Source of the DNA: a bacterium UBP13_UBA5359
GTDB lineage: Bacteria; UBP13; UBA5359
DNA length: 20,000 nt
Reading direction: 5' to 3'
Assembly: GCA_002410925.1 (NCBI GenBank)
Contig: DHPR01000004.1
Coordinates: 56,695-76,694, forward strand
Under the pieces are notes generated by a model that saw nothing but the letters and a program-made list of their open reading frames with translations, did no database searches and was not told the origin of the DNA. How positions within the stretch are numbered: position 1 is the first letter of the stretch; each line of letters starts with the position of its first letter. Both the position numbers and the translations under genes were made by a program. Below, piece after piece: positions 1-13,381 of this stretch.

Positions 1-2
1 TG

Positions 3-695
3 GGCGCCGGAGTATGCCGCCCCGGAACGGCATCTGAAACCAGTGGAACCTGCCTTGCAATTGTAACGCTGGCGGAGCAGATTTTAAGCAATCTTCCGGA
101 TGGGCTAACCAGCGGCAGATTTCCTATTGAGGGCTATTCATTTGTGCTGGCTTATGAAAGAACAGCTGGGCTGATGCTTGATTCTTTTCGTGAAGAGCTA
201 TGTCCCGGCAAAGACTTTGAAGAGTTAGACAAAGAGGCATCATCCGTGCCGCCTGGGAGCAGAGGGATAGTTCTGCCGTCCAACTTTGACGGCGCCAGCA
301 AATTCACCAGTAACCTATCCCTTAAAAATGCTCCGGCAGAGATATACAGAGCCATACTGGAATCCCTTGCATTCAGCATGAAAGAGAAGGTGGAGTTAAT
401 GAAAGCGCAGGGGCTTTCTTTTGATTCCATACGCTCCATAGGCGGCGGTGCAAAGAGCAACCTATGGCTGCAAATAAAGGCAGATATCCTTGGCATGCCC
501 ATAGAACGTCCGCAGGTTACCGAAGCCGCATCTCTTGGAGCGGCAATGATTGCAGCATCCGGCGCAGGTGCTTACGCCTCTATAGCAGAGGCATCAAAAT
601 CTATGTGGCGCGGAGAGGATATATTTAAGCCGAATAAATTCAATAAGGTTGTTTATGACGAAGCTTACAGGCGCTACCTGCAGCTAAGTCATTAA
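3..695 (+). CDS. FGGY-family carbohydrate kinase (xylulokinase/LsrK-like), 5'-truncated by the window edge
   Basis: The frame of ORF 144..695 stays open back to position 3 (GAGVCRPGTASETSGTCLAIV...). It contains FGGY C-terminal signatures: YRAILESLAF, SIGGGAKSNLWLQIKADILG and EAASLGAAMIAASGAG. Confidence 0.9.
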   Translation, partial: GAGVCRPGTASETSGTCLAIVTLAEQILSNLPDGLTSGRFPIEGYSFVLAYERTAGLMLDSFREELCPGKDFEELDKEASSVPPGSRGIVLPSNFDGASKFTSNLSLKNAPAEIYRAILESLAFSMKEKVELMKAQGLSFDSIRSIGGGAKSNLWLQIKADILGMPIERPQVTEAASLGAAMIAASGAGAYASIAEASKSMWRGEDIFKPNKFNKVVYDEAYRRYLQLSH

Positions 696-725
696 TTTAA
701 ACACAACAACAGAAAGGCATGAGAG

Positions 726-1541
726 ATGAACGGATTAGATATCAGAATGAGCAGGCTGTTTCCCAGCGGAGAGAACGCCGTTGTGGTTGCAGTAGATCAT
801 GGAGAGTTTGACGGGCCTATCCCCGGCATGGTAGACTTGCCTCAAACGGTAAAAAGTATAGACCCGGGCGTATCTGCCGTACTAATATCGCCAGGGATGA
901 TAAAGCATTGCACCTCTGTATTTTGCGGCAAAGGGGCGCCTGCTGCCATGGTACGCATAAACTGGAGCACCGTGTATGCCTTCCACTGGAGCTATAACAA
1001 TGCAAACACCGTGCAGGCCGTGAACGTGCCGGATGCCGTGGCGGCGGGCGCAGATACCGTGCTAATCTCGCTCACGCTCAAGACAGGGAGCGAAGAAAGG
1101 GATGCTGCAAACACAGAACTCTTCTGCAAACTGGCCGGTGAGGCGCACCGCCTGGGGATACCGGTTGTGGGCGAAATATTCCCGGCATATTCCGGCGAAC
1201 TTTCACCGGAAGAGATGCATGATCAGGTTTTGCGCGGCTGCCGCATAGTGGCAGAATTGGGCGCAGATCTTGTAAAGACCTTCTACACTCACAAGTTTAA
1301 GGAAGTTACGGACGGCTGCCCTATTTCCGTACTTGGGCTTGGTGCAGAAAAGACCCCCAGGCAGATACAGGCCCTGGAGCTGGCGGAGAGGATAGTTCAG
1401 GATGGCGGCAGAGGGGTGGTCTTTGGAAGAAACGTCATACAGGCGCCAAATCCCCAGGCCTTTCAGCGGGCACTTTGTGATGTAGTAAGACGCGGTGCCT
1501 CTGCTGCTTCTGCCGCCAAGCAATACGGATTGGAAGATTAA
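726..1541 (+). CDS. DhnA/LsrF-type class I aldolase-family protein (TIM barrel, Schiff-base Lys)
   Basis: Motifs VAVDHGEFDGP, AELGADLVKTFYT (catalytic Lys184) and GVVFGRNVIQ are present. It lies 30 nt downstream of the FGGY kinase. The substrate cannot be assigned. Confidence 0.88.
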   Translation: MNGLDIRMSRLFPSGENAVVVAVDHGEFDGPIPGMVDLPQTVKSIDPGVSAVLISPGMIKHCTSVFCGKGAPAAMVRINWSTVYAFHWSYNNANTVQAVNVPDAVAAGADTVLISLTLKTGSEERDAANTELFCKLAGEAHRLGIPVVGEIFPAYSGELSPEEMHDQVLRGCRIVAELGADLVKTFYTHKFKEVTDGCPISVLGLGAEKTPRQIQALELAERIVQDGGRGVVFGRNVIQAPNPQAFQRALCDVVRRGASAASAAKQYGLED

Positions 1542-1661
1542 ACGGTTTAGAGCAGGTTTTACCAAGCCTTCTCTAACGTATGATAACGCTCTCAATCTGA
1601 AGCGCATCTGCAATATACCGCAGAGATTCGGCAATAGTTGACCCTATTTCCACATTCCGCC

Positions 1662-1690
1662 TTGACACTTCCCGAAGCATGTGTTCCAAT
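1662..1690 (+). promoter_or_regulatory. Candidate sigma70/sigmaA promoter for the DUF5320 gene
   Basis: Perfect TTGACA (1662-1667), a 17-nt spacer, then TCCAAT (1685-1690) preceded by TG (extended -10). Confidence 0.55.
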
Positions 1691-1691
1691 G

Positions 1692-1710
1692 TAGATGTAA
1701 ATTACACCTA
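1692..1710. promoter_or_regulatory. Imperfect inverted repeat, candidate repressor operator
   Basis: TAGATGTAA-A-TTACACCTA (8 of 9 arm positions pair), directly downstream of the -10 and over the predicted transcription start. Confidence 0.55.
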
Positions 1711-1762
1711 TAAGTTATTAACATTGACTTGTTGTAAGGGTGTAAGCAAGGAGGGTAAAGCA

Positions 1763-2071
1763 ATGCCTGGTGGAGATGGAACGGGACCGCTGGGAATAGG
1801 GCCTATGACAGGCTGTAGAAGCGGTTACTGTGCCGGCTATGATGTTTCGGGGTATGCCGGTATGAGAAGGTTCCCTGGAAGAGGTCCGAGATGTGGCGCA
1901 GGTTTGGGCCGGTTAGGCATATTTGCAGCCGGCGGGTTGCTTGCCCGCAATTTCTTCAGCACAATGTCAAGGGTGGATGAAAAAGCGCTGCTGCTTGAAG
2001 AAAGCAAGGTTATGGAAGATAGGCTGAATGATATCAAGCAGCGTTTGAGTCGCCTCGAACAGGATGAATAG
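1763..2071 (+). CDS. DUF5320-like small Gly/Arg-rich protein with C-terminal coiled coil (102 aa)
   Basis: AAGGAGG RBS (1748-1754) before ATG 1763. The N-terminus MPGGDGTGPLGIGPMTGCRSGYCAG is characteristic of DUF5320, and the C-terminus is a heptad EKALLLEESKVMEDRLNDIKQRLSRLE. Confidence 0.85.
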   Translation: MPGGDGTGPLGIGPMTGCRSGYCAGYDVSGYAGMRRFPGRGPRCGAGLGRLGIFAAGGLLARNFFSTMSRVDEKALLLEESKVMEDRLNDIKQRLSRLEQDE

Positions 2072-2122
2072 TTGTGTTACGTTGTTGTTGACCCCATTTC
2101 TTTGAAGGGATAATTAAACTTA

Positions 2123-2233
2123 ATGAAAAATGATAAATGTGGCGACAAAGAGTGTGGCAGCAGCAGGATAGAGGATTATGGCGACGGTCTTCCCCTGAGC
2201 CTTGCTCAGTATCTCATCGGTGAAGATTTATGA
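2123..2233 (+). CDS. Possible small protein, 36 aa (MKNDKCGDKECGSSRIEDYGDGLPLSLAQYLIGEDL)
   Basis: Hand-translated ATG 2123 to TGA 2233. It fills the DUF5320-PadR gap, with a weak AAGGGA RBS-like site 12 nt upstream. It is too short for the supplied ORF track. Confidence 0.35.
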   Translation: MKNDKCGDKECGSSRIEDYGDGLPLSLAQYLIGEDL

Positions 2234-2254
2234 AAAGAACAGGAGTGATGCGAC

Positions 2255-2659
2255 TTGTCTAGAGAAAGACATTGCCGCCGGCATAGAGGCGGAGCCTGTT
2301 CCTGCGAAATGGGCAACCTTTACCGCTTTGTAGAACCGATTGTTCTTCTATCTGTAGCCAGGCTTGAGGAGGCTTACGGTTATCAAATATCTCAGGCGGC
2401 GGAGGAAATGGCTGTAACTCATGCCGAGCTGGATATGGGCGGTATATACAGAGCTTTGAGGCGTTTGGAGAATAACGGGCATCTTTTTTCAAATTGGGAT
2501 ACCGAAAGTGGCGGACCTGCCCGAAGGATATATCGATTGACAGAAAGAGGGCGGAAGCATTTGGCTGAATGGGCTGAAGTGTTGGAGGAAATGCTCGTTC
2601 CGTTGACCAGGCTCCAAAAAGCATGTAGCGAAGCGGCAGTTTCAGGGGATGCTTCCTGA
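2255..2659 (+). CDS. PadR-family winged-helix transcriptional regulator with Cys/His-rich N-terminal extension
   Basis: AGGAG RBS (2241-2245) and a TTG start. PadR motifs AYGYQI, GGIYRALRRLE and WDTESGGPARRIYRLTERG are present. The N-terminus is HCRRHRGGACSCEMG. Confidence 0.88.
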   Translation: MSRERHCRRHRGGACSCEMGNLYRFVEPIVLLSVARLEEAYGYQISQAAEEMAVTHAELDMGGIYRALRRLENNGHLFSNWDTESGGPARRIYRLTERGRKHLAEWAEVLEEMLVPLTRLQKACSEAAVSGDAS

Positions 2660-2681
2660 CAAGGCGAAAGCTCTTTTTAAG

Positions 2682-2728
2682 TTGCAAAATGCAAGCTGCA
2701 TTTCATTTAATGTGTAATGCATGTGCAT
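2682..2728. promoter_or_regulatory. Candidate promoter/operator region upstream of the NifX-ATPase operon
   Basis: TTGCAA (2682-2687), 18 nt, TTTAAT (2706-2711), overlapped by AAATGCA-AGC-TGCATTT (2687-2703). A second ATGCA-TG-TGCAT follows (2717-2728). Confidence 0.4.
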
Positions 2729-2784
2729 ATACCAGGGAAGAAGGCAATATTATCAAAGATATCAACGAATGGAGGGTAAAGAGA

Positions 2785-3147
2785 GTGAGAGTTGCAATCA
2801 CTTCTCAGGGGCAGAGCTTGGAAAGCAGACTCGACAGGCGTTTCGGGCGGGCGGCTTTCTTTGTGGTGGCGAATACAAAGACCGATGAGTTTACTGTCCA
2901 TGATAACACTCAAAATCTCAATGCAGCTCAGGGAGCCGGTATTCAGGCTGGAAGCAATGTTGCCGGTCTGAATGTAGAAGCGCTTATAACAGGCAATGTC
3001 GGTCCCAAGGCATATGCCGTCCTTAAGGCGGCCGGCATCAGAATTTATCTGGCGCCTGGCGGCACGGTGGCTGAAAGCCTGCAGAGGTTCAAGGATGGCC
3101 TTTTAGAGGAGCGTTTGTCGGCCAATGTCGATGGACATTGGATATAA
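2785..3147 (+). CDS. NifB/NifX-family (dinitrogenase FeMo-co biosynthesis domain, MTH1175-like) protein, 120 aa
   Basis: GGAGG RBS (2771-2775) before GTG 2785. Motifs MRVAITSQG, DRRFGRAAFF, AQGAGIQA, ALITGNVGPKAYAVLKAAGI and C-terminal ANVDGHW. Confidence 0.88.
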   Translation: MRVAITSQGQSLESRLDRRFGRAAFFVVANTKTDEFTVHDNTQNLNAAQGAGIQAGSNVAGLNVEALITGNVGPKAYAVLKAAGIRIYLAPGGTVAESLQRFKDGLLEERLSANVDGHWI

Positions 3148-3174
3148 GATAGAGGATAGCTGGAGGATGATCAG

Positions 3175-4032
3175 ATGAAGATTGCCGTAGCCAGTGGCAA
3201 AGGCGGTACAGGCAAGACGACTGTAGCTGTAAACCTATCTCTCTTTCTGGTTGATGCCGGTCTGAAGGTAACTTATGCAGATTGTGATGTTGAGGAGCCT
3301 GATGGGCATCTCTTTCTTAAGCCGAAGAGCGGCTTGAAGCGCAGAGTTGCCGTACTCGTGCCGCAGGTGAACCCAGAGGCTTGCAATCTATGTGGAAAGT
3401 GCGGTGCTTTTTGCCGCTACAGCGCCATCGTCGTTCTCAAAGAGAAGGTTGTGACCTTCCCGGAGCTCTGTCATAATTGTGGCGTTTGCGCCTATGTCTG
3501 TTCCGCTCAGGCCATAACCGAGGTGAATAGATATATTGGGAGCGTGGAGAGAGGGTCAGCCGGCAAGCTGAACTTTATCAGCGGCTGCCTGGATATCGGC
3601 CAGGCCATAAGTCCGCCCCTGATAAAGGATGTTTTAAAGGAGACACCGGATAGCGGTGTAACAATTGTGGATGCGCCTCCGGGAACCTCTTGCCCGGCCA
3701 TGACCGCCGTTAGCGATTGCGATTATTTGCTGCTGGTAACCGAACCTACCCCTTTCGGGCGGCATGATCTGGAGCTGATGCTGCAGGCCGTGTGCTCTCT
3801 GTCCATACCGAAAGGAGTAGTGCTGAACAGAGTAAGCAGCCCTGATACGGCAACAGAAAAGCTATGTAGCAGGTATGGCGTGTCTATTCTGTCTCGGATA
3901 CCGGAGGATAGGCTGATAGCTGAAGCTTATTCAAAGGGGCTTACGGTTTGGGAAGCGGTGCCTGGCTATAGGACTCTCTTTGCTGATCTTTGGTCCAGGA
4001 TAGAACCGATTGCCGGGGGGTATATGGCGTGA
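3175..4032 (+). CDS. MinD/ParA-superfamily P-loop ATPase with inserted 2x[4Fe-4S] ferredoxin domain (COG1149-like), copy 1
   Basis: Deviant Walker A SGKGGTGKTT, then DCDVEEPD, CNLCGKCGAFC and CHNCGVCAYVC, Walker B IVDAPPGTSCP, and VTEPTPFG. A GGAGG RBS lies upstream. Confidence 0.9.
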   Translation: MKIAVASGKGGTGKTTVAVNLSLFLVDAGLKVTYADCDVEEPDGHLFLKPKSGLKRRVAVLVPQVNPEACNLCGKCGAFCRYSAIVVLKEKVVTFPELCHNCGVCAYVCSAQAITEVNRYIGSVERGSAGKLNFISGCLDIGQAISPPLIKDVLKETPDSGVTIVDAPPGTSCPAMTAVSDCDYLLLVTEPTPFGRHDLELMLQAVCSLSIPKGVVLNRVSSPDTATEKLCSRYGVSILSRIPEDRLIAEAYSKGLTVWEAVPGYRTLFADLWSRIEPIAGGYMA

Positions 4033-4916
4033 AGGAAATAGTGGTTATAAGCGGCAAGGGAGGTACGGGCAAAACCAGCCTGACGGCTGCCTTTGCCGGC
4101 CTGGCAGGAAAATGTGTACTGGCGGATTGTGATGTGGATGCCGCTGATCTGCATCTGCTGCTGCAGCCTCAGGTAAGGGAGAGATATGAATTCAGCGGCG
4201 GCGGCCGGGCAGAGATCAAGGCGGAAAAGTGTTCGAAATGCGGTCTCTGCCGGCAAATCTGCCGTTTTGATGCGGTGCGATATTCGGCCGATAAAAAGAG
4301 CTTTCCGACGGTGGATCCTCTGGCCTGCGAAGGATGCGGTTTCTGTGCCATTGTCTGTCCGGCGGACGCAATAGAAATCAGACCCGCAGCTAACGGAGAG
4401 TGGTATGTTTCGGATACTCGGCTGGGTTCCATGGTTCATGCCTGTCTTCGTCCGGGTGAGGGTAACTCCGGCAAGCTGGTGGCGCTGGTGCGGAGCCGGG
4501 CCAGGAAAATTGCGGCTGAGGACGGTAGCGCATACATATTGATAGATGGTTCACCGGGGTTGGGTTGCCCGGTGATAGCCTCGGTAGCCGGCAGTGATAT
4601 GGCCGTTATTGTGACGGAGCCTACAATCTCCGGGGAACACGACCTGTTGCGCATTTCTGCTCTGACAAAGCACTTCAGGGTACCCACTGTAGTTTGTATC
4701 AACAGGAGCGATATCAATCCGGCGATTGCTGATCGTATAGCCGCCGTTTCTGAGGCGCAAGGGCTTGAGGTTGTCGGCCGCATACGTTACGATAAGATCG
4801 TAACAGAGGCTCAAATGGCAGCGAAAACCGTTAATGAATATACGGATGGACTTGTTGCCGAAGAAATAATGACGGCCTGGCGGCGTATAATAACTTTAAA
4901 TAAAGGAAGGGAATAA
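4029..4916 (+). CDS. MinD/ParA-superfamily P-loop ATPase with inserted 2x[4Fe-4S] ferredoxin domain (COG1149-like), copy 2, 295 aa
   Basis: The GTG start overlaps the upstream stop (GTGA 4029-4032). Motifs MKEIVVISGKGGTGKTS, DCDVDAADL, CSKCGLCRQIC, CEGCGFCAIVCP, LIDGSPGLGCP and VTEPTISG. Confidence 0.9.
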   Translation: MKEIVVISGKGGTGKTSLTAAFAGLAGKCVLADCDVDAADLHLLLQPQVRERYEFSGGGRAEIKAEKCSKCGLCRQICRFDAVRYSADKKSFPTVDPLACEGCGFCAIVCPADAIEIRPAANGEWYVSDTRLGSMVHACLRPGEGNSGKLVALVRSRARKIAAEDGSAYILIDGSPGLGCPVIASVAGSDMAVIVTEPTISGEHDLLRISALTKHFRVPTVVCINRSDINPAIADRIAAVSEAQGLEVVGRIRYDKIVTEAQMAAKTVNEYTDGLVAEEIMTAWRRIITLNKGRE

Positions 4917-4919
4917 GAG

Positions 4920-5258
4920 ATGAAAATTGCAATTCCGGTAGCTGATGGAAAGCTTTGCCCGCATTTCGGGCATTGCGAAGAGTTCTACATCTTTGATATT
5001 GATAAGAGAGGCTGTAAGGTTACTGCTTGTGACAGGCAGGTGCCGCCGCCACATGAACCGGGTCTGCTGCCGCGCTGGTTGCACGGTATGGAGGTTACGC
5101 ATGTTATTGTCGGCGGCATGGGTGCCCGGGCGCAGAGACTATTTCAGGCCGCAGGTGTTAAAGTTGTGGTGGGAGCTCCTGCTGTTGACGCTGAAACAGT
5201 GATCAAGGCATATTTGGAGAATACTCTGGTAACCGGAGATAACGCCTGCGATCATTAG
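4920..5258 (+). CDS. NifB/NifX-family protein, His/Cys-ligand subtype, 112 aa
   Basis: MKIAIP...CPHFGHCEEF, PPPHEPGLLPRWL, VIVGGMGARA and C-terminal NACDH. It starts 3 nt after the ATPase stop. Confidence 0.88.
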   Translation: MKIAIPVADGKLCPHFGHCEEFYIFDIDKRGCKVTACDRQVPPPHEPGLLPRWLHGMEVTHVIVGGMGARAQRLFQAAGVKVVVGAPAVDAETVIKAYLENTLVTGDNACDH

Positions 5259-5332
5259 GCAGCCCGCGATCTGGTGAAGTCTAAAAACTGTCAGGCTAAG
5301 AGAGCTCTGGCGGATTTTACGGGAGATTGAAT

Positions 5333-6454
5333 ATGGCAAATGGCAATCGATCCATCCTTCACAGTGGACAGGCTGCTGTTGCTGAGGGAAAGAAATCAAA
5401 GGCCACTGTCACGGGGGGTATAAAAGGGGGCCTTAGCCAGGCGGATTGGGATGTCAAGCTAAGGGGTCTCTTCATCTGTATGCTCTTCATGCTGGCAACA
5501 GTCGGCTTGCTGTTGGGTCTGCTGATTCCGATTCTACGCCTGAGCGGGGGGATAGAGGCTTTTCCTACTTTTCAGGTGGTCTTTATCAGCATCGTTCTGG
5601 AGGCCGTACCCTTTATTTTGCTCGGTTCGCTCATTTCCGGCCTGATTCATGTTCTGGTGCCGGAGGATACTTTGAAGCGCTTTATTCCAACAGGTAGATT
5701 TCCATCTGTGCTGGCCGGAGCTTTTCTCGGTTTCTTCTTTCCTGTTTGTGAATGCGGTGTTATTCCGGTGGCCAGAGGTCTGATGAGAAAGGGAGTTCCT
5801 CTTCATGCGGCTGTGGCCTTTATTTTGGCTGCCCCGGTGGCTAATCCTGTAGTTATTCTGTCCACAGCGGTAGCTTTTAATTATGATTTTAAAGTGGTGG
5901 CTGTCAGGGTAGGACTGGTATTATTGATCGCTATAACCATTGGCCTGTTGATGGCCTGGTTGCCTGTTGGAAAAAAATTCATGCGGCAGGAGGATGAAAC
6001 AGCCGAAGGATGCGGCTGCTGCTCCGGGACATCTTCCGGCACTTTGGTCGAAAAGGCCTCCGGGGTGGCGGAGCATGCTACACGGGAATTCTTCGATGTA
6101 GGTAAATTCCTTATTCTAGGTTCCTTCTTAGCGGCTTTCATACAGACATTTATCTCTCGACCGCACCTGCTGGCTGTAGCCAAAGGACCGGTTCTATCCG
6201 TCCTGAGCATGAATGCCCTGGCAGTTCTTACCTGTCTCTGTTCCGAAGTTGATGCCTTTGTGGCCAGGTCATTCTCTCTCTCTTTTTCCATGGGCTCAGT
6301 GCTCTCCTTTATGATACTTGGTCCTATGTTTGATATTAAGAGCGGTATGATGCTGCTGGGCACTTTTAAGAAGCGCCCGGCGTTTATACTAATAGCTTTG
6401 ATGCTTTCGCTAACGACGATTATCGGCATAGTGCTCAATTTTACATATAAATAA
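5333..6454 (+). CDS. DUF318/ArsP-family membrane permease (B. subtilis YcgR-like)
   Basis: Multiple hydrophobic helices and motifs EAVPFILLG, FPVCECGVIPV, FILAAPVANP, CLCSEVDAFVA and GPMFDIK, plus a loop GCGCCSG. ATG 5333 follows GGGAGA; TTG 5327 is an alternative start. Confidence 0.88.
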   Translation: MANGNRSILHSGQAAVAEGKKSKATVTGGIKGGLSQADWDVKLRGLFICMLFMLATVGLLLGLLIPILRLSGGIEAFPTFQVVFISIVLEAVPFILLGSLISGLIHVLVPEDTLKRFIPTGRFPSVLAGAFLGFFFPVCECGVIPVARGLMRKGVPLHAAVAFILAAPVANPVVILSTAVAFNYDFKVVAVRVGLVLLIAITIGLLMAWLPVGKKFMRQEDETAEGCGCCSGTSSGTLVEKASGVAEHATREFFDVGKFLILGSFLAAFIQTFISRPHLLAVAKGPVLSVLSMNALAVLTCLCSEVDAFVARSFSLSFSMGSVLSFMILGPMFDIKSGMMLLGTFKKRPAFILIALMLSLTTIIGIVLNFTYK

Positions 6455-6469
6455 GAGGTGATCCTTTTG

Positions 6470-7336
6470 ATGGATAAAGAGGTCTTCGGCGGATACAGCC
6501 ATAATGCGCATGAATGTGCGGGCTGTAAGGATACACATCAGCACAATCATAGCCATAACCATGAACACCGCCATGCTCATAACCATGAGCATGGCGGGTT
6601 AAGCCTTGATATCTTGCTGCTTCGCACGGGTGTTCTGCTTATCTATGCCGTTTTATTGGCCAAAGTATTTCTGCACCATGAAATTACGCTTTATATAAAA
6701 AAGGATCTAATCTGGCTGACGGCAGCCGCAGGTTTTTTCGTTATGCTGATGTTGATCTCTACTCTGATGACGGTTTATAAGGTCTCCTTACGGATGCCTG
6801 ATGATAATGGCTACGGCGGCATAGCCTTTTACGGTCTCAGAATTCCGACCAAGGAGTTTCTCGGCTGCATAATTATCCTGATGCCTGCTCTGCTGGGACT
6901 TCTCTTTACGCCTCAATCGCTGGATTCTTTTGCAGCAGGCAGGCGAGGTATTTCCGGAAAAGCTCCTGTGGCCGTCAATAAGATGGAACCGATCAAATCC
7001 AGAGAGATATCGTTGTTGCGTCTGGCCGGCGGGCTGGAGCAGGAGCCGGAAAAGTTTATCGGTCGCGATTTTGCCTTTGTGGGCTTTGTAGGCCATGATG
7101 AAAAGCTGGGGGCGGAGCGCTTCTATCTTGTGCGTTTTGTCATCTCCTGCTGTGCGGCCGACGCCACGCCGCTGGGCTTTGAGGTTGATTATCCCGAGGC
7201 GGAAGAGCTGAAGGATAACCAGTGGGTAAAGGTGGAAGGTCATGTTATAAAGAGAGATGATAAGAGCGATTGGCCGTATGCCATCAAGGCTTCTCGAGTT
7301 CAGCCAGTCAAGAAGCCGTATAATCCATATTTATAA
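6470..7336 (+). CDS. TIGR03943/DUF1980-family putative permease subunit (B. subtilis YcgQ-like) with N-terminal poly-His/CxxC tail
   Basis: GAGGTG RBS before ATG 6470, three TM-like segments, and conserved RFVISCCAADA, DNQWVKVEG and C-terminal PYNPYL. It is adjacent to the DUF318 permease, as is typical for the pair. Confidence 0.85.
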   Translation: MDKEVFGGYSHNAHECAGCKDTHQHNHSHNHEHRHAHNHEHGGLSLDILLLRTGVLLIYAVLLAKVFLHHEITLYIKKDLIWLTAAAGFFVMLMLISTLMTVYKVSLRMPDDNGYGGIAFYGLRIPTKEFLGCIIILMPALLGLLFTPQSLDSFAAGRRGISGKAPVAVNKMEPIKSREISLLRLAGGLEQEPEKFIGRDFAFVGFVGHDEKLGAERFYLVRFVISCCAADATPLGFEVDYPEAEELKDNQWVKVEGHVIKRDDKSDWPYAIKASRVQPVKKPYNPYL

Positions 7337-7379
7337 CGGCTGCCTAAATATCCTTTTCTGAGGTAGATTACCTATAGAT

Positions 7380-7392
7380 CCGCCTTCGGCGG
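7380..7392 (+). terminator. Short GC hairpin after the permease pair (possible terminator/pause)
   Basis: CCGCC-TTC-GGCGG lies 43 nt after the stop, with no clear U-tract. A second small inverted repeat, AGGTA-GAT-TACCT, sits at 7361-7373. Confidence 0.25.
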
Positions 7393-7443
7393 CGCTGTAT
7401 GCAGCTCAAATAAACATACCCGGAAACCTGAGCATTTACCTTC

Positions 7444-7472
7444 TTGTTTTTGCTGAAAAAGAGTGCTAAAAT
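7444..7472 (+). promoter_or_regulatory. Candidate sigma70/sigmaA promoter for the TetR efflux operon
   Basis: TTGTTT (7444-7449), 17 nt, TAAAAT (7467-7472) with an upstream TG (extended -10). Confidence 0.6.
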
Positions 7473-7501
7473 AAATTAACTAACCGGTTAGTTAATTTAT
7501 T
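7470..7501. promoter_or_regulatory. 32-bp perfect palindrome, probable TetR operator
   Basis: AATAAATTAACTAACC|GGTTAGTTAATTTATT overlaps the -10 and start site just upstream of a TetR-family gene. Confidence 0.85.
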
Positions 7502-7514
7502 GGCGGTGATAGCA

Positions 7515-8123
7515 TTGTCAGAAGATAAGAAGCGAGGGCGCAGGGAGCTGAAGGATTCTCCCGAGGTCAAACAGGATGTCTTCGATGCCGCGGTGAGGGT
7601 CTTTGCCCGATATGGTTATGGGGCAGCATCGGTACAGAAGATTGCTGATACGGCCGGAGTAAATAAGGCTATGCTTTATTATTACTTCGGCAGCAAGGAA
7701 GAGCTCTATAATCTTATTATAGGCAAAAGTATAAATGCGCTGGAAACGGCGGTGGCTGCAGCGGAGAATAAAGATATATCCCTGGAGGAGCGGCTACGGC
7801 GATTTCTTACTGCCTATCTTGGCGTGGCGATAGCGCAGCCGGGTCTGGCACGTATCATTTACCGGGAAATCATTGAGTTAGGTGAGCGAGTTAGGCAGAT
7901 GGTGACTGATCATTTCACCGGCAGCATAGAACGTTTGGCAGCTGTGCTGGAGCAGGCACAGGAGGAAGGGCATTTGGCTGGTGTGGATGCATCTCTATCG
8001 GCTTATTCTCTTTTCGGTATGGCCAATATCTTTATTTCCAGGCTCATGATAACGGAGCATTCCTTGGATAATGATGTTCTGGTCGATCATATATTGAAGC
8101 TCTTTTTCAGTGGTGCGGGTTAA
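7515..8123 (+). CDS. TetR/AcrR-family transcriptional regulator
   Basis: N-terminal HTH VFDAAVRVFARYGYGAASVQKIADTAGVNKAMLYYYFGSKEELY. The likely start is TTG 7515 after GGCGGTGA; the ORF-track start 7500 lies inside the operator. Confidence 0.92.
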   Translation: MSEDKKRGRRELKDSPEVKQDVFDAAVRVFARYGYGAASVQKIADTAGVNKAMLYYYFGSKEELYNLIIGKSINALETAVAAAENKDISLEERLRRFLTAYLGVAIAQPGLARIIYREIIELGERVRQMVTDHFTGSIERLAAVLEQAQEEGHLAGVDASLSAYSLFGMANIFISRLMITEHSLDNDVLVDHILKLFFSGAG

Positions 8124-8152
8124 TTTTTTGTTCGGTATGTAGGAGGCATTGC

Positions 8153-9505
8153 ATGAAACGGTGGAATCTATTATTGCTTGCCTGTATGTGCCTCGGCAGC
8201 GTTTGCACTGCCCAGGCGGATACATTGAGCTTGTCTGAGGCCGTCGGAACGGCTTTGATCTTTAATCAGGAGTTGGCTGCGGCCAGGGCAGATATAGCTG
8301 TTGCAGCTGCTAAGCTGCAACAGCTACGTTCCCAGGGCAGGCTGCAGGCAGGACTGGATCTCAGCTTTACGCACCTGGAGACGGCGCCTCTTCTTGAGGT
8401 GCCGCCCATAGATATCCCTCTGCTGCATACCAGCATTACTCTGCAGCCCTTTGCTCTCTCCAAACAGGATATGTTGAGAAGCTCTCTCTCCCTACAAAAG
8501 GTTCTGTCTACCGGAGGACGTATAGAATACGGTGAAGCACAGATCAAGGAAGCGGTGGCGGCGCTGGAGGCAAGAGTTGAAGCCAAAGCCGATGAGATTG
8601 CCATGTCGACGGTCAAAGCTTACTTAGGGGCGGTTCTGGCACAGAGAATGGCCGAAGTGGCCGAGCAGGCTTACCGGGTTGTCGAGCGCCATGTATCCCA
8701 GGCGGAGGCAGTTTTTAAAGCCGGCATGGTTCCTCGCTATGAGGTTATCCGAGCGCAGACAGAGCTGGCCAATCAGGATCGGCGTCGTTTGGATGCGCAT
8801 AATCAAGTAGACCTGGCGCTGAATCTGCTGCAGGATTTTATGGGAGTGACTTTGGAGGAACCGCCGGTTCTCAGCACCTCCTTTTCAGGCAAAGAAAACA
8901 TGGATGAGGAGCTGGAGGAGATGATTCGGAGCGTAATGCAATCTTCACCGGCTATCAAAGCGCTGCAAGCGCGGGATCGTCTTTACTCTGCCGCTGCTGC
9001 CTCGGCCAGGGCGGAGAGACGCCCTGTCATAGGCGCTGCAATCGGATTGGAGCTTTACAGAGAGGACCTGCCGTTGACCACTCCAGAGGGATATGCCGGC
9101 ATAGTAGCCAGGTTTCCCATTCTGGATGGTGGCCTATCACAGGCCAGGGAAGCTGAACAACTGGCGCTGAAAGAGCGTAATGTGGCAGATATGCAGCGTT
9201 TGCAAAACGGACTGCGTCTGGAAGTAAAGAAGTATTATTTCGATCTGAACAGCGCCCGCAAGGCATTGCAGGCAGCCGACAAGGCGGTGGAATTGGCTTC
9301 AGAGAATTTACGCTTGGCCACAAGGCGTTTTGAAGTTGGGGAGGGGACCAGTATCGAGAAGGTGGACGCTGTGCTGGCGCTCTCTCTGGCTGTAGCCAAC
9401 AGGGAGCAGGCATGTTATCAGTATGATCTCTCTTATTATGGATTGAGAAAGGCTGCCGGCCGCATCAGGACGGAATTAGATGGGGGGATGAAAGATAATG
9501 GCTGA
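8153..9505 (+). CDS. TolC-family outer-membrane efflux channel
   Basis: AGGAGG RBS and a signal peptide ending AQA|DT. OEP-repeat features include LSLSEAVGTAL..N, FKAGMV...EV.RA and ENLRLATRRFEVGEGTSIEKVDA. Confidence 0.88.
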   Translation: MKRWNLLLLACMCLGSVCTAQADTLSLSEAVGTALIFNQELAAARADIAVAAAKLQQLRSQGRLQAGLDLSFTHLETAPLLEVPPIDIPLLHTSITLQPFALSKQDMLRSSLSLQKVLSTGGRIEYGEAQIKEAVAALEARVEAKADEIAMSTVKAYLGAVLAQRMAEVAEQAYRVVERHVSQAEAVFKAGMVPRYEVIRAQTELANQDRRRLDAHNQVDLALNLLQDFMGVTLEEPPVLSTSFSGKENMDEELEEMIRSVMQSSPAIKALQARDRLYSAAAASARAERRPVIGAAIGLELYREDLPLTTPEGYAGIVARFPILDGGLSQAREAEQLALKERNVADMQRLQNGLRLEVKKYYFDLNSARKALQAADKAVELASENLRLATRRFEVGEGTSIEKVDAVLALSLAVANREQACYQYDLSYYGLRKAAGRIRTELDGGMKDNG

Positions 9506-10790
9506 AAGGAAAGGGGTTTTTTCAAGAATTTTGAAGGCGGCACGCCCAAAAGAAGTGATAGCGGTTCTATTGGCAATAGTGGTATTTCTGATCGGTTATT
9601 ATGTAATAGGGCGTCACAGCGCTGGCTCGCTTTTGTCTACATCTATTGATACTCGGGCAGGTGCCGGAGCGAGCGGGTTCACGGTTGACGGCACTTTGGA
9701 AACGGATGAGGTGGATATATCCAGCAAGCTGCCGGGGCGTTTGTTACAGCTTTTGGTTGAAGAGGGCGACCGAGTCTCCGCAGGACAGGTAGTGGCGCTG
9801 CTTGAGGCGGATGAGATAGAGGCCAAGTGCCGTCAGGCTGAAGCGGGTGTCAGGGCAGCCCAGGTGCAGGTGGCTCAGGGAGATATAGCCGTTAACCTGG
9901 AGCAGCTTAAATCCGGTGATCAAGTAGACCAAGCGGCTGCCGGTGTCAAGGCGGCCAGAGCTGCACTGAGCATGGCCCAGGCTAAATTAGCTGTGCTGGA
10001 GAAGGGCGCCAGGCCGCAGGAGATAGCTCAGGCGACAGAGGGCGTGGCTGCAGCTCGAGCGGCCTTTGATACGGCTGAAAAGACTTATCGGCGTGTGAAG
10101 GGATTATCGGACGAGGGTGTGCTTTCGCAGCAGAAAGCGGATGAGGCAGAGATGGCTTATCGCAGCGCTTCGGCTCAGCTTTCCGCCGCCTCAGCCAGGC
10201 TCAGTCTGGTTAGGGAAGGTGCTCGGAAGGAAGAAATCGAGGCGGCAAGGGAGCAAGTGCATCAGGCCGAAGCGGGCCTGTGTGCTGCTCAGAGCAAACT
10301 GCAGATGGCTCATAATGCCAGGCTGATGGTAAACGTACGGCAGAAGGATGTAGAGGCGGCCCGGCAGAAAGTAGCCGCCAGCGAGGGGGCTCTTATGGAG
10401 GCGGGAGCTTATCGCAATCAGACGCGTATCGTCAGTCCTATCAGCGGCACGATCAGCCGGCGTATGAGCCGCAGCGGCGAGATTGTGGCTCCGGGATATG
10501 CCATTCTATCGGTATCCAGGGACAGCGGTTACTGGGTAGACGTTTATATTGATGAGAACAGGTTTACCGGGCGCTCCAAGGGAGAGCGAGTCAGGGTGGA
10601 GATTCCGGCTCTTGGTAAAATGTTGCCGGGCAGGATAGCGCGCATTATGCCGGCGGCCGATTTTGCCGTCAAGCGAGCTACCAACGAGAAGGGCTCCTAC
10701 GATATTCGGGCACTCAAAGTCAGGGTCATGCTGGATGACAACCTTGAGAACCTGGCCGTCGGGCTGACAGCCAGGGTTCATTTTGGCTGA
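9498..10790 (+). CDS. HlyD-family membrane fusion (periplasmic adaptor) protein
   Basis: N-terminal TM helix, split lipoyl halves (ISSKLPGRLLQLLVEEGDRVSAGQVVALL; IVSPISGTI) and a long Ala/Gln-rich helical hairpin. It overlaps the TolC gene by 8 nt. Confidence 0.92.
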   Translation: MAERKGVFSRILKAARPKEVIAVLLAIVVFLIGYYVIGRHSAGSLLSTSIDTRAGAGASGFTVDGTLETDEVDISSKLPGRLLQLLVEEGDRVSAGQVVALLEADEIEAKCRQAEAGVRAAQVQVAQGDIAVNLEQLKSGDQVDQAAAGVKAARAALSMAQAKLAVLEKGARPQEIAQATEGVAAARAAFDTAEKTYRRVKGLSDEGVLSQQKADEAEMAYRSASAQLSAASARLSLVREGARKEEIEAAREQVHQAEAGLCAAQSKLQMAHNARLMVNVRQKDVEAARQKVAASEGALMEAGAYRNQTRIVSPISGTISRRMSRSGEIVAPGYAILSVSRDSGYWVDVYIDENRFTGRSKGERVRVEIPALGKMLPGRIARIMPAADFAVKRATNEKGSYDIRALKVRVMLDDNLENLAVGLTARVHFG

Positions 10791-10804
10791 GACGGAGGAC
10801 GCAT

Positions 10805-11971
10805 ATGTTTATCAAACGATTGTACCATCTCATGCAGAGAGAATGGGCTATTCTGACTTCCGATCTTCGTCTGCTGGCCATCGTCCTGCTGGTGCCGATA
10901 GGCTATACTCTTCTTTTAGGCAGCATCTATCAGCCTAAAAGAGTATCCGCCATTCCTACCTGGGTTATCGATGAGGATAATAGTGCTCTCAGTCGAGCTG
11001 TTCGCGACGGGGTGGCATACGACGAGACATTTTCCCTGGTACATGAGGGCGGAACTATCGAAGAGTTCAGGAAGGCAAACCTGCAGGGGAGCGCTTTTGC
11101 CTGCATTGTCATACCGAAGCATTTTGAAGCGGATGTGAAACGAGGACACGCTGCCAGGCTGTTGACGTTGATAGACGGCAGTAATATGCTCATTGCCAAC
11201 AGCGTCTTGCGCGGTGCTGCATCCATAGGTGGTACTTTCTCGGCCGGCATCCTGATCAAGCGTCTCTCTATGCGCGGCACTCCCTCCGGCAGCGCTCTGA
11301 CTGCTGCCGTGCCGGTGACATCTGAAACCAGGGTCTGGTATAATCCTGCCTTCGACTATCTGGATTTTCTGTTGCCCGGTTTGCTGGCAACCGTTGTTCA
11401 GCAGGTGACGTTGCTGGGGGTGGCTCTGGCCTTCACTCGCGAGCGTGAAAGAAAGCTGACCGGCGATCTTTTGCAGATAACCGACAGCCCATTAGAAGTG
11501 TTGCTGTCCAAAGGCATTTTTTATACGCTGATAAACCTGTTCACGGCTGCAGTTGCCTTTACCATCGCCGTTAGGTTTTTTCATATGTCGCTGGGGGGAT
11601 CGTTGGGCTTGCTGGCAATTCTTTTGACCGTTTTTATCATTGCTCTGGTAGGGCTGGGTCTGGTGGTTAGCGCCGTTTGCCGGGATTCTCTCTTTGCTAC
11701 TCAGGTGCTGATGCTGATAGCTGTGCCGTCGTTTCTTTTCAGCGGTTTTACCTGGCCGCAGATCTCTATGAGCGGCTGGGTACTGGGTTTGAGCAATGCT
11801 TTGCCTTTGACCCATTTTGTTCTGCCGCTCAGGCAGATAGTAGTTCAGGGTGGAAATATGGAAGCCGTCCGTTCTCATCTGTTATGGCTATGGGGCCTGG
11901 CAGGTAGCTGCTATGCCGCAGCTTATCCGATGGTACGTCTCTCTTTGAGACGTGAGGCGAGCAAGTTATAA
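10805..11971 (+). CDS. ABC-2 type transporter permease (YbhR/YhhJ-like)
   Basis: GGAGG RBS, an N-terminal TM plus extracytoplasmic loop (VIDEDNSALSR), WYNP..DYLDFLLPG, FTRERE and FLFSGFTWP...M...LSNALPLTHF. Confidence 0.9.
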   Translation: MFIKRLYHLMQREWAILTSDLRLLAIVLLVPIGYTLLLGSIYQPKRVSAIPTWVIDEDNSALSRAVRDGVAYDETFSLVHEGGTIEEFRKANLQGSAFACIVIPKHFEADVKRGHAARLLTLIDGSNMLIANSVLRGAASIGGTFSAGILIKRLSMRGTPSGSALTAAVPVTSETRVWYNPAFDYLDFLLPGLLATVVQQVTLLGVALAFTRERERKLTGDLLQITDSPLEVLLSKGIFYTLINLFTAAVAFTIAVRFFHMSLGGSLGLLAILLTVFIIALVGLGLVVSAVCRDSLFATQVLMLIAVPSFLFSGFTWPQISMSGWVLGLSNALPLTHFVLPLRQIVVQGGNMEAVRSHLLWLWGLAGSCYAAAYPMVRLSLRREASKL

Positions 11972-12079
11972 CTATGAATTTGCGAACAGATCCAAATTTT
12001 ATATGCATCCTGCCCAAGTAATTTATTTTGATGCCTGCTGTCGTATGGCGTAAGTAGTTAAATCTTACTTTCCTTAAGA

Positions 12080-12115
12080 TATACCCCTTGCGGGCACGTG
12101 CCCGCAAGGGGTATA
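12080..12115. promoter_or_regulatory. 36-bp perfect palindrome spanning a sigma70-type promoter; probable LacI-family operator
   Basis: TATACCCCTTGCGGGCAC|GTGCCCGCAAGGGGTATA contains -35 TTGCGG (12088-12093) and runs into -10 TATAAT (12112-12117, 18-nt spacer). The central CG is typical of LacI/GalR operators, and a LacI gene lies downstream. Confidence 0.8.
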
Positions 12116-12145
12116 ATTGCTCTTACAGATAAGAAGGAGGCTGTT

Positions 12146-13381
12146 ATGAGCAATATGGAGAGAGCGATAAAATCCAATTTACAATGGTTTCTGCAATCGG
12201 GTGTTATGGACCCGGCCGACGGCACCTGGGGAGTTGCTGAGCGCGTCCTTCTGGCCAAAGGAAATGAAGCTTTGGGAAAAACATTATCGGATTTTGATAG
12301 CTACACGCCTTATGAAGGCTATTATATTCTGGAACATCGTCGTCCTGATTGCAACTTTGAAGTTGCTTTGCTCTTTCTGCTGGCAGCAAGAGCTTTCGGT
12401 AATGAGAATTACCGGAACGTAGGGCGCAATCTGGTGCGTTATCTCTATCGGCGCAGCGGTTGCCGCACCAACACTGCCTCTGTAATGCTGCCCGGCATTT
12501 GGGGTTGGGCAACGCCGCCACCGCATTTGCAGCAAAGCTACTGGCTGGATGATAATTCCTGGGACGTAACGCTCTCGCTATTGATAAGTGAATTGGATCC
12601 ATTGCTCGATGCAGAATTGAATTTGCGGCAAAAGGGCTTGGAGAGTGCTTATGCCCTTTGTAAATACTTTGACCGTATGCTTAAAGAAGAGGACCCGCCG
12701 ACGAAACTTCCTTTAAACGGAGCTGACCAGGCGCCCCATTTTTCGGCTCTGGCTCTAATGGCTTGCGCCAAGGCCTGGCATCACAGCCGGGAAGATGCTT
12801 TTCTGAAGCCGATGCGCAGGTATCTTGAACTGGTCGCTGCAGATGGAATAGCGAGCAATGTGTGGTTAGTGCGCGGTGGCGGCAAGCTGACGCCCAGTGA
12901 ACATACCTACCTCATATTGGGGTTATCCTGCTGTGCCGGTACGCCTCTTGAAGAGAGGGCGGTAGCGTTAGCCTGCCGCTCAGCCGATTTTATTCTGTCC
13001 ATTATGGATGAGAACGGCAACATACCCAGCAAACATTTCGAGGCGCCTCAGGGCGACCACCTCGTTGATCTGATTTATACGCAGAACTGGGCCACGCTGG
13101 GGTTGGTTAATCTGGTCTCTGTAACAGGAAAGACAGAGTATGCCAGGGTTCTAAAGAAATCGATGGATATGCTGGTAGCCATCCAGGATAGCTCCCCGCA
13201 GAAGCATCTTTGCGGCTGCTGGCGCGGAATGTATGATCTTGACGCCGGAACATGGGGCGGCGGTGACGAATATGAGGGCGGGGCCGGCAGTATATACACC
13301 GGCTGGACCAATGCTCCCATCTCGTTGGCCCTGCTGATGCAGGCCAACGGCTGGACGCTGCTGCATGGCGGCCAGCGTTAG
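12146..13381 (+). CDS. Hypothetical protein, 411 aa, probable (alpha/alpha)-barrel (six-hairpin glycosidase-like) enzyme
   Basis: AAGGAGG RBS (12134-12140) before ATG 12146, with no signal peptide. It shows repeated amphipathic helix pairs ending in segments such as SIMDENGNIP and AIQDSS...GCW, and acidic/aromatic motifs YWLDDNSW, DLIYTQNW and EYEGG...YTGWTN. The fold is inferred. Confidence 0.6.
   Translation: MSNMERAIKSNLQWFLQSGVMDPADGTWGVAERVLLAKGNEALGKTLSDFDSYTPYEGYYILEHRRPDCNFEVALLFLLAARAFGNENYRNVGRNLVRYLYRRSGCRTNTASVMLPGIWGWATPPPHLQQSYWLDDNSWDVTLSLLISELDPLLDAELNLRQKGLESAYALCKYFDRMLKEEDPPTKLPLNGADQAPHFSALALMACAKAWHHSREDAFLKPMRRYLELVAADGIASNVWLVRGGGKLTPSEHTYLILGLSCCAGTPLEERAVALACRSADFILSIMDENGNIPSKHFEAPQGDHLVDLIYTQNWATLGLVNLVSVTGKTEYARVLKKSMDMLVAIQDSSPQKHLCGCWRGMYDLDAGTWGGGDEYEGGAGSIYTGWTNAPISLALLMQANGWTLLHGGQR

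Follow-up and report, generated by a model that had tools for sequence, protein, structure and literature searches.

The window analysed here is a 20,000-nucleotide stretch of the genome of the bacterium UBP13_UBA5359 (G000:C26:56695-76694), the right edge of which is the contig end; positions below are those of the window unless another contig or locus is named. It contains an operon, real and under selection, in which a known system, the orange protein (ORP) complex, is coupled to a permease and to a candidate sensor of a metal or cluster. Judged from the sequence, positions 1662-7392 probably form one PadR-controlled operon, which would be a variant of the ORP system of strict anaerobes with a built-in two-component, thiol-lined permease. 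The ORP core was already known; the variant found here is probably controlled by a CxC-tagged PadR regulator and is united with a two-part metal permease.

The host genome (G000) is 2.25 Mb in size and 98.4% complete. Its genus comprises three species in all, the other two being represented by the genomes G001 and G002 (hereafter the sister species). Metagenome runs labelled as fermentation, sludge and landfill carry the stretch with at least 99% identity (runs X1, X2, X5 and X7 were compared). Such sources fit an anaerobic lifestyle.

Identity of the core genes

All eight co-directional genes that the first-pass annotation had named between positions 1763 and 7336 of the forward strand were found in place and with the domains given. 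Its description of them as an uncharacterised module has to be abandoned, since the core is, by its sequence, the ORP gene set described in Desulfovibrio (PMC6345978, in the part of the text accessible to us). The assignment to this known kind is based on the matches of the two NifX proteins to PDB entry 2WFB and to MrpORP, on the Orp3/Orp4-like ATPases and on the composition of DUF5320 loci in other genomes.

NifX1 (2785-3147, forward strand) is an Orp8-type Nitro_FeMo-Co protein (PF02579, E 2.7e-21), which matches 2WFB, named 'ORP', with an E-value of 2.2e-18 over residues 2-107 of 120. It contains no cysteine. Orp8-type orange proteins hold their metal-sulfide cluster non-covalently. NifX2 (4920-5258, forward strand; Nitro_FeMo-Co, E 1.3e-19) corresponds to a free-standing C-terminal Di-Nase domain of MrpORP (Orp9). 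Its match to the MrpORP profile NF041136 has an E-value of 1.8e-35 and a score of 122.9 bits, compared to a cut-off of 450, with only profile positions 265-365 of 365 matched. The CPHFGHC motif reported earlier was confirmed as part of CPHFGHCE, and is followed by PPPHEPG and a C-terminal CDH, while the accessible part of PMC6345978 names the motifs of the Di-Nase domain as CxHFGHCE, PPPHxPG and CDH. Residues H15, C19, C110 and H112 are invariant in 5/5 aligned sequences.

ATPase1 (3175-4032, forward strand) features CbiA and ParA domains, an inserted Fer4 domain and the P-loop GKGGTGKT, and its paralog ATPase2 (4029-4916, forward strand; 30% identity) likewise has CbiA/ParA domains with Fer4 inserts. 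The four CxxCxxCxxxC motifs noted before are present, at residues 70 and 99 of ATPase1 and at residues 68 and 100 of ATPase2. In the available sections of PMC6345978, Orp3 and Orp4 are two similar proteins with two [4Fe-4S] ferredoxin motifs each that co-purify with Orp8. The MinD-like ATPase pair agrees with this account in domains, motifs and mutual identity, a comparison made with the description of Orp3/Orp4 only. It is the sole such pair in the host genome, in which NifX1 and NifX2 are also the only two Nitro_FeMo-Co matches. The nitrogenase gene context of a NifX/NifB-type cofactor carrier was not found, no search having been aimed at nifHDK.

The small DUF5320 protein (1763-2071, forward strand; PF17253, E 8.6e-22) has an N-terminal GDGTGP sequence and a CxxxxC motif. 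The ORP complex is widespread: DUF5320, as its marker, was detected in 135 of 401 sampled genomes. With a lineage of just three species, nearly all genomes of this sample are kin at the domain level only, and they are not mutually independent. From the ORP side, 20 DUF5320 loci from 20 other genomes in 19 families were searched with single tblastn queries (E ≤ 1e-5). DUF5320 is accompanied by the ATPase pair in 17 of these loci and is the first gene in most of them; the genes mostly run DUF5320-NifX-ATPase-ATPase, and NifX2 or Mrp often comes next.

Compared to the ORP complex of D. vulgaris Hildenborough (Orp3, Orp4, Orp5, Orp8 and Orp9/MrpORP), the unit shares two paralogous MinD-like ATPases with two 4Fe-4S motifs each, an orange-protein-type Nitro_FeMo-Co protein homologous to 2WFB, the Di-Nase domain with its three motifs, a small accompanying protein (here DUF5320) and an anaerobic host. 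It differs in its organisation. The Desulfovibrio genes form two divergent operons dependent on sigma-54 and a cognate activator, whereas the genes here share one strand and follow a predicted sigma-70-like promoter, with the padR gene inside the unit. Furthermore, the domains of MrpORP are split with the Mrp half deleted, and a two-component permease is included.

Gene order and junctions

The gene order PadR-NifX-ATPase-ATPase-NifX-ArsP-DUF1980 is kept in both sister species, with protein identities of 70-95%. The tight junctions described for the core were confirmed: 27 nucleotides (nt) between NifX1 and ATPase1, a GTGA overlap of the two ATPase genes, 3 nt between ATPase2 and NifX2, and 74 nt between NifX2 and ArsP. 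The spacer of 74 nt (5259-5332, forward strand) is partly conserved in the sister species, including the ribosome-binding site GGGAG, and a terminator scan found nothing inside it.

The most likely start of NifX1 is GTG 2785, since a ribosome-binding site (GGAGGG) is found there and G001 has an ATG at the same place; this leaves a gap of 125 nt after PadR. A start at position 2689 (open reading frame 2689-3147, 152 amino acids) was rejected, as the additional 5' part lies in a stretch missing from G001. The PadR-NifX1 spacer (2660-2784) is about 60 nt longer than that of G001 and contains a 7-3-7 inverted repeat (AAATGCA-AGC-TGCATTT, 2687-2703), which accounts for the spurious ATG at 2689.

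After the last gene, a GC hairpin without a T run (CCGCC-TTC-GGCGG, 7380-7392, forward strand) was read from the sequence and is the likely end of the unit. Generic promoter and terminator scans gave counts at the level of shuffled sequence and listed no site in the intergenic gaps of the unit. A search of Rfam yielded nothing at E-values up to 0.1 across positions 1-8300.

The two-component permease

The ArsP_1 (DUF318) permease (5333-6454, forward strand; PF03773, E 4.3e-66) carries the motif P-x-C-E-C-G, a central loop rich in cysteine (CGCC) and CSxxDAF; the CEC, CGCC and CLC motifs noted earlier were all recovered. Its partner, the TIGR03943/DUF1980 subunit (6458-7336, forward strand), passes the TIGR03943 cut-off beside the PF03773 permease (140.8 bits compared to 88.8). 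The gap of 15 nt previously given between the two genes stands if the start is ATG 6470, and shrinks to 3 nt if it is GTG 6458. As claimed, the subunit has a CxxC motif, 12 histidines within its first 50 residues and a CCAAD motif. An AlphaFold2 model (pLDDT 82.6) predicts three membrane helices and a C-terminal OB-fold domain, and in a Foldseek search the DUF1980 domain matched OB folds.

The thiol sites of the pair are strongly conserved. In 25/25 ArsP partners of DUF1980 the motifs P-x-C-x-C-G and C-S-x-x-D-A-F are kept, with C139, C141, C303 and D307 invariant, and the motif RF-I-CCAAD of DUF1980 is almost invariant. His-rich tracts are common in the DUF1980 family, usually between helices 2 and 3, and the N-terminal tract is found only in this genus. 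A homolog search with DUF1980 gave 16 matches, of which the four nearest are 71-100% identical and the rest at most 40%, the value of 40% applying to part of the sequence only. Positive-inside counts found both the N-terminus and loop 1 to be net positive; a periplasmic OB domain, our first idea, was dropped because the charge counts pointed to no clear side.

The pair resembles the two-component pairs YcgR/YcgQ of Bacillus subtilis, BAS1632 of B. anthracis and SMU.746-747 of Streptococcus mutans in the adjacency and order of the subunits, in the invariant PxCxCG and CSxxDAF motifs of the permease and RFxIxCCAAD of the partner, and in its metal-homeostasis neighbours. Unlike those pairs, it is predicted to be co-operonic with ORP genes, and the His tract of its DUF1980 subunit is N-terminal instead of lying in the loop of helices 2 and 3. 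In the literature examined, no substrate is assigned to the two-component ArsP_1/DUF1980 type.

An additional membrane protein of about 215 amino acids (protein X), with no Pfam family and with the motifs HIFHP, HxHICI and PCC, directly follows DUF1980 in one permease clade. It was found at L058:2532-3170, L030:659-1312, L072:11095-11748, L082:3638-4306, L005:2181-2819 and L107:6-, with 67-88% identity among the copies. It is present at one ORP locus and has no homolog in the host genome. Protein X looks like a third permease subunit belonging to an unannotated family.

Direction of transport

We consider it probable from gene context that the permease imports a thiophilic metal, in agreement with the earlier suggestion of import. 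This direction is favoured because pairs of this type keep company with ZnuABC, CbiMN, ZIP, COG0523 and Fur/Zur. In G384, the junctions of the pair with its importer neighbours, ZnuB and CbiM, are overlapping or abutting (2 to -7 nt), and metal-related neighbours of other pairs include ZnuA/ZnuC at locus L044, ZIP at L092, Fur at L072 and COG0523 at L016. Bacillus anthracis has an ArsP_1 permease gene, divergent from yciC, whose promoter is bound by Zur, as given in the accessible part of PMC6336718. At L044:7149-10465 (a Chloroflexia record), ZnuA and then a short ABC ATPase open reading frame precede ArsP and DUF1980; no ABC-3 (ZnuB) gene intervenes, and it looks as if the pair occupies the place of the ABC permease.

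Within the genus, the ORP genes of G001 are immediately preceded by MTHFR-Fur-ZnuA-ZnuC-ZnuB (L001:189-4211). The same genes are found in the host at C26:41681-45678 in contig numbering, 12.8 kb upstream of the ORP genes. Among the DNA inserted between them in the host are the sugar kinase and aldolase genes found at the beginning of the window. As to the metal, the data are compatible with Zn, Ni, Co and Fe alike.

The reverse direction has to be considered. Here, the ORP proteins would trap excess thiophilic metal as metal-sulfide clusters, the permease would expel it and PadR would derepress the unit on binding a toxic ligand. Other PadR regulators control efflux and detoxification genes. 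The described ArsP_1 relatives are efflux systems, SaoE and ArsP being read as exporters and SO_0444-type genes being important under zinc stress, and the best NCBIfam matches of the permease are the efflux families SO_0444 (Cu/Zn; NF033936) and SaoE (NF040736). However, the scores of 100.9 and 80.7 bits are far below the respective cut-offs of 300 and 325. While the single-component exporters ArsP (organoarsenical), SO_0444 and SaoE belong to the same Pfam family and also have a Cys-x-Cys motif in the membrane, the motif is C-S-C in these proteins and C-E-C here. The permease studied here is of the two-component type with a DUF1980 partner, has no ars gene context and no SAO genes in the window, and its gene company points to uptake. 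Pairs of its type are packed between importer genes in G384, stand elsewhere beside ZnuA, ZIP, COG0523 and Fur/Zur, and include the Zur-bound gene of B. anthracis (PMC6336718, same part of the text). Export or detoxification therefore appears unlikely to us, and import of a thiophilic metal is kept as the working direction.

Linkage of the permease to ORP genes

The claim that the permease pair is wired to the NifX/ATPase genes was upheld, as the arrangement is syntenic in 3/3 species of the genus and recurs in three other lineages. The permease is conserved on a par with the ORP genes, with identities of 91% and 88% for its two genes in G001, and of 81% and 70% in G002. In G002 the pair is located between NifX2 and Mrp-IscU, and thus has ORP or Fe-S genes on both sides.

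TIGR03943 was detected in 23 of the 401 genomes. Its loci were examined in 17 of the 22 other genomes, the omitted five being mostly weak or partial matches, and ORP genes were found within 10 kb in four (G001, G002, G096 and G384), which represent three families including that of the window. In G096, MrpORP-ArsP-DUF1980 closes a Fur-headed ORP supercluster of about 22 kb on one strand, which ends with ATPase-ATPase-DUF364-NifX-MrpORP-ArsP-DUF1980. In G384 the order is ZnuA-ZnuC-ZnuB-ArsP-DUF1980-CbiM-CbiN-like-Fur-CoADR-DUF5320-NifX-NifX-ATPase plus further genes, with overlapping or abutting junctions.

A second search used the pattern RF[VLI]I[TS]CCAA, built on an alignment of 14 DUF1980 sequences, in 185,579 species genomes. 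From its 571 confirmed matches the best 80 were analysed; about 64 of the latter have cyanobacterial names in their titles, so that this set gives little information on anaerobes. ORP genes stand at four of the best 80 of the 571 loci. Two of the four are the arrangement of the genus itself, while the others are L058 (a Ratteibacteria record; ATPase-ArsP-DUF1980-X-ATPase) and L030 (DUF1980-X-ATPase-MBL), probably one lineage because an 88%-identical protein X is common to both. The ATPase1 match at L017 (G367) is weak and covers 46 residues of the P-loop region only; it was not counted as an ORP gene.

The six ORP-linked rows of a maximum-likelihood tree built from 25 ArsP partners fall in four well-supported places and require four changes, so that the ORP-permease link has arisen, or been retained, several times across the permease clades. 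The neighbourhood search proposed earlier thus found the link to recur outside the genus, but as a minority variant: ArsP/DUF1980 was detected at 0/20 of the other ORP loci, for which single-query tblastn can miss distant transporters. The link is a recurrent yet minority arrangement. No title or abstract in the limited literature collection searched links ORP genes to ArsP_1/DUF1980.

A simpler explanation would be mere adjacency, with the pair as an independent low-zinc uptake unit that has no functional tie to the ORP genes. The gap of 74 nt is the widest of the core, most pairs are situated away from ORP genes, most ORP loci have no pair, and ORP-linked rows are no more clustered on the ArsP tree than shuffled labels (44/500 shuffles needed as few changes). 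This view has to contend with the position of the pair between NifX2 and Mrp-IscU in G002 and between two ATPase genes at L058, with ORP neighbours in four permease clades, and with a gap that holds no terminator-like site. By our own estimate, a distance below 5 kb is expected by chance in about 0.3% of genomes of about 3 Mb in which both sets are present. We regard mere adjacency as quite improbable, and the reading as one operon with a built-in permease is retained.

The G096 supercluster (G096:C27:1-22000, loci L003/L004) also contains two ATPase pairs, three methyltransferases, a radical SAM enzyme, DUF89, an MBL-fold protein and a J-domain protein, as well as CoADR-rhodanese, a DUF364 'heavy-metal chelation' protein, an amidohydrolase and a glyoxalase-fold protein.

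Regulator and promoter region

The PadR-family regulator (2255-2659, forward strand; PF03551, E 9.9e-19) scores 67.6 bits compared to a cut-off of 27, and reaches the cut-off of no NCBIfam PadR equivalog. The cysteines and histidines of the metal-ligand motif ascribed to it are present; the exact pattern had to be corrected to an N-terminal arm of the form HC-x2-H-x4-C-x-C. Both sister species retain the CxC arm, although the PadR of G002 is only 49% identical overall, and so do the PadR homologs found in G365 and G175. The conserved arm fits the view of PadR as a candidate sensor, and from the sequence we infer that PadR may respond to a metal or a cluster.

A predicted promoter is located at 1662-1690 (forward strand), with a -35 element TTGACA (1662-1667), a spacer of 17 nt and TG-n-TCCAAT with the -10 element at 1685-1690. 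From TTGACA 1662 to the ATG of DUF5320 the three species share 84% identity; upstream of the -35 element their sequences diverge. The palindrome ATGTAA-A-TTACAC (1695-1707), which overlaps the predicted transcription start, is a candidate PadR operator and reads GTGTAA-N-TTACAC in both sister species. In G002, padR is inverted and a second good promoter lies between padR and nifX1, followed by TTACAC-N6-GTGTAA. The operator core TGTAANTTACA has only three copies in the 2.25-Mb genome. The other two are located at G000:C7:8190 and C19:95076, and the C19 copy (GTGTAAGTTACAA) lies inside an open reading frame of 725 amino acids.

PadR homologs (E ≤ 1e-10) were found in 9/80 DUF5320-positive genomes (80 of the 135 having been searched; places examined, 4/10). 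The arrangements are PadR(CGC)-NifX-MrpORP in G365, NifX-PadR-DUF5320 in G052 and PadR-Mrp-DUF5320-ferredoxin in G171; in G175, PadR(CDC) adjoins a MacB-type ABC system and an ArsP_1 gene. Fur-type regulators are present at six of the 20 sampled ORP loci. As PadR homologs adjoin NifX, Mrp or DUF5320 in G365, G052 and G171, the CxC-tagged PadR is a recurrent alternative to Fur-type regulators, and the presence of this regulator distinguishes the unit from Fur-headed ORP operons.

Variation at the head of the operon

Mrp/ApbC had been reported as absent from the window. This has to be revised, since a relic of 36 in-frame codons is present at 2123-2233 (forward strand) and intact copies stand in the same operon of both sister species. 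The first 11 or so and the last 24 or so codons of the relic match the respective ends of the complete Mrp of G001 (290 amino acids; PF10609, 296 bits), which sits where the relic stands in the host. By this alignment, the relic is an in-frame internal deletion of Mrp; a new Cys peptide, as which the small open reading frame could be taken, was rejected in view of the match to both Mrp ends. Runs X1 and X2 (two studies; depths of 22 and 52) each have the deleted form within a single contig, without any difference over positions 1500-7499; both runs are possible sources of this assembly and are not fully independent. A full Mrp was not found elsewhere in the 98.4%-complete genome, in which the best PF10609 match is partial (46 bits), while 14/14 control genomes were positive.

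In G002, Mrp directly follows DUF1980 and is itself followed by an IscU-type gene. In both sister species Mrp is intact yet unfused to the Di-Nase domain. DUF5320 of G001 is cut short after codon 22, and PadR, NifX1, both ATPases, NifX2, ArsP and DUF1980 are retained in all three species. With Mrp deleted in the host, DUF5320 truncated in G001 and Mrp placed after DUF1980 in G002, the operon head is decaying differently across the three species. The genus thus offers a natural experiment, in which the seven-gene core is kept throughout.

SufB/SufD (PF01458) was not matched at all in the host genome, while 14/14 control genomes have one, and an IscU-type gene is located at C20:8360-8746. Together with the lack of a full Mrp, this suggests that the host makes do with a strongly reduced set for Fe-S assembly.

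Proposed mechanism and significance

In the operon proposed here, a PadR dimer bound to the palindrome at the transcription start would repress the whole unit, itself included, and its N-terminal CxC/His arm would sense a metal or Fe-S cluster and release the DNA. Through the CxC and CSxxD sites of ArsP_1/DUF1980, a thiophilic divalent metal would cross the membrane. It may then be received, held or passed on as a metal-sulfur cluster by the NifX-type carriers together with the ATPase pair, which is ATP-driven and contains ferredoxin domains.

Several points weigh against this interpretation. Co-transcription across the unit is something we infer from the sequence, as the runs found to carry the stretch include no RNA run, and the generic promoter scan did not list the promoter proposed at 1662-1690. 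This PadR, like the permease pair, was detected at none of the 20 sampled ORP loci, and most permease pairs have no ORP genes nearby (13/17 genomes and 76/80 of the best 80 pattern loci). Mrp, the in-vitro loader of the Orp3/Orp4 Fe-S clusters, is lost here, which may mean a different way of working or decay. The characterised single-component ArsP_1 members (ArsP, SO_0444 and SaoE) are read as exporters, and charge-bias counts gave no clear answer on the sidedness of the His tract and OB domain of DUF1980. Finally, the ORP complex was earlier proposed for cell division, with its natural ligand given as not known, in the accessible part of PMC6345978.

That MinD-like ATPases act here in cell division or positioning at the membrane or pole, with the permease as unrelated cargo, is highly improbable: the polar location of MrpORP and the MinD-like C-terminal amphipathic helix of Orp3/Orp4 (PMC6345978, in the same part of the text) are in its favour, but the recurrent partners of ORP genes are metal genes (Fur at 6/20, FeoB at 2/20 and IscU at 3/20 loci, plus ZnuABC, CbiMN and ArsP/DUF1980), with no division gene among them.

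The proposed PadR-controlled ORP-permease operon suggests a broader idea, about which we are doubtful. By analogy, ORP systems could be the cytoplasmic arm of thiophilic-metal acquisition in sulfidic, anoxic habitats. In the arsenite pump ArsA-ArsB-ArsD, a SIMIBI-class P-loop ATPase, a thiol-based soft-metal permease and a small metallochaperone are encoded together. The two systems are alike in combining a pseudo-dimeric or heterodimeric ATPase, a thiol permease and a small carrier in one gene set. They differ in that there is no membership by sequence and that the ATPases here have ferredoxin inserts; the likeness is one of analogy. In such an acquisition system, ArsP_1/DUF1980 would import the metal, either as such or within a small metal-sulfide unit. 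The ATPase heterodimer of Orp3/Orp4 type would dock on the permease, like ArsA on ArsB, and drive or gate the transfer. In the manner of ArsD, the NifX-type proteins would serve as carriers, on which the metal stays in the form of a sulfide cluster, and the CxC-tagged PadR would read the fill state of these carriers. If true, this would give a concrete job to the ORP complex, unexplained since 2011.

The permease, the Cys-tagged regulator and the candidate operator provide an experimental handle on ORP function, namely on the metal that switches the unit, the metal transported and its direction, and the cargo of the NifX proteins. The system could also reveal what permeases of the two-component ArsP_1/DUF1980 type transport, which would be the first substrate assigned to them.

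Neighbouring efflux operon

Downstream of the ORP unit, a perfect 24-bp palindrome (AATTAACTAACC/GGTTAGTTAATT) is found at 7474-7497, just before a TetR gene. Positions 7500-13381 encode this TetR, followed by a TolC-like outer-membrane protein, an HlyD-type adaptor, an ABC-2 permease and a protein of 427 amino acids without Pfam family. The region 7474-13381 is a separate efflux operon with a likely operator of its own. Contigs of three runs join the same 30 nt to other DNA (loose ends at 7470), and a second copy of the TetR operator is therefore probable.

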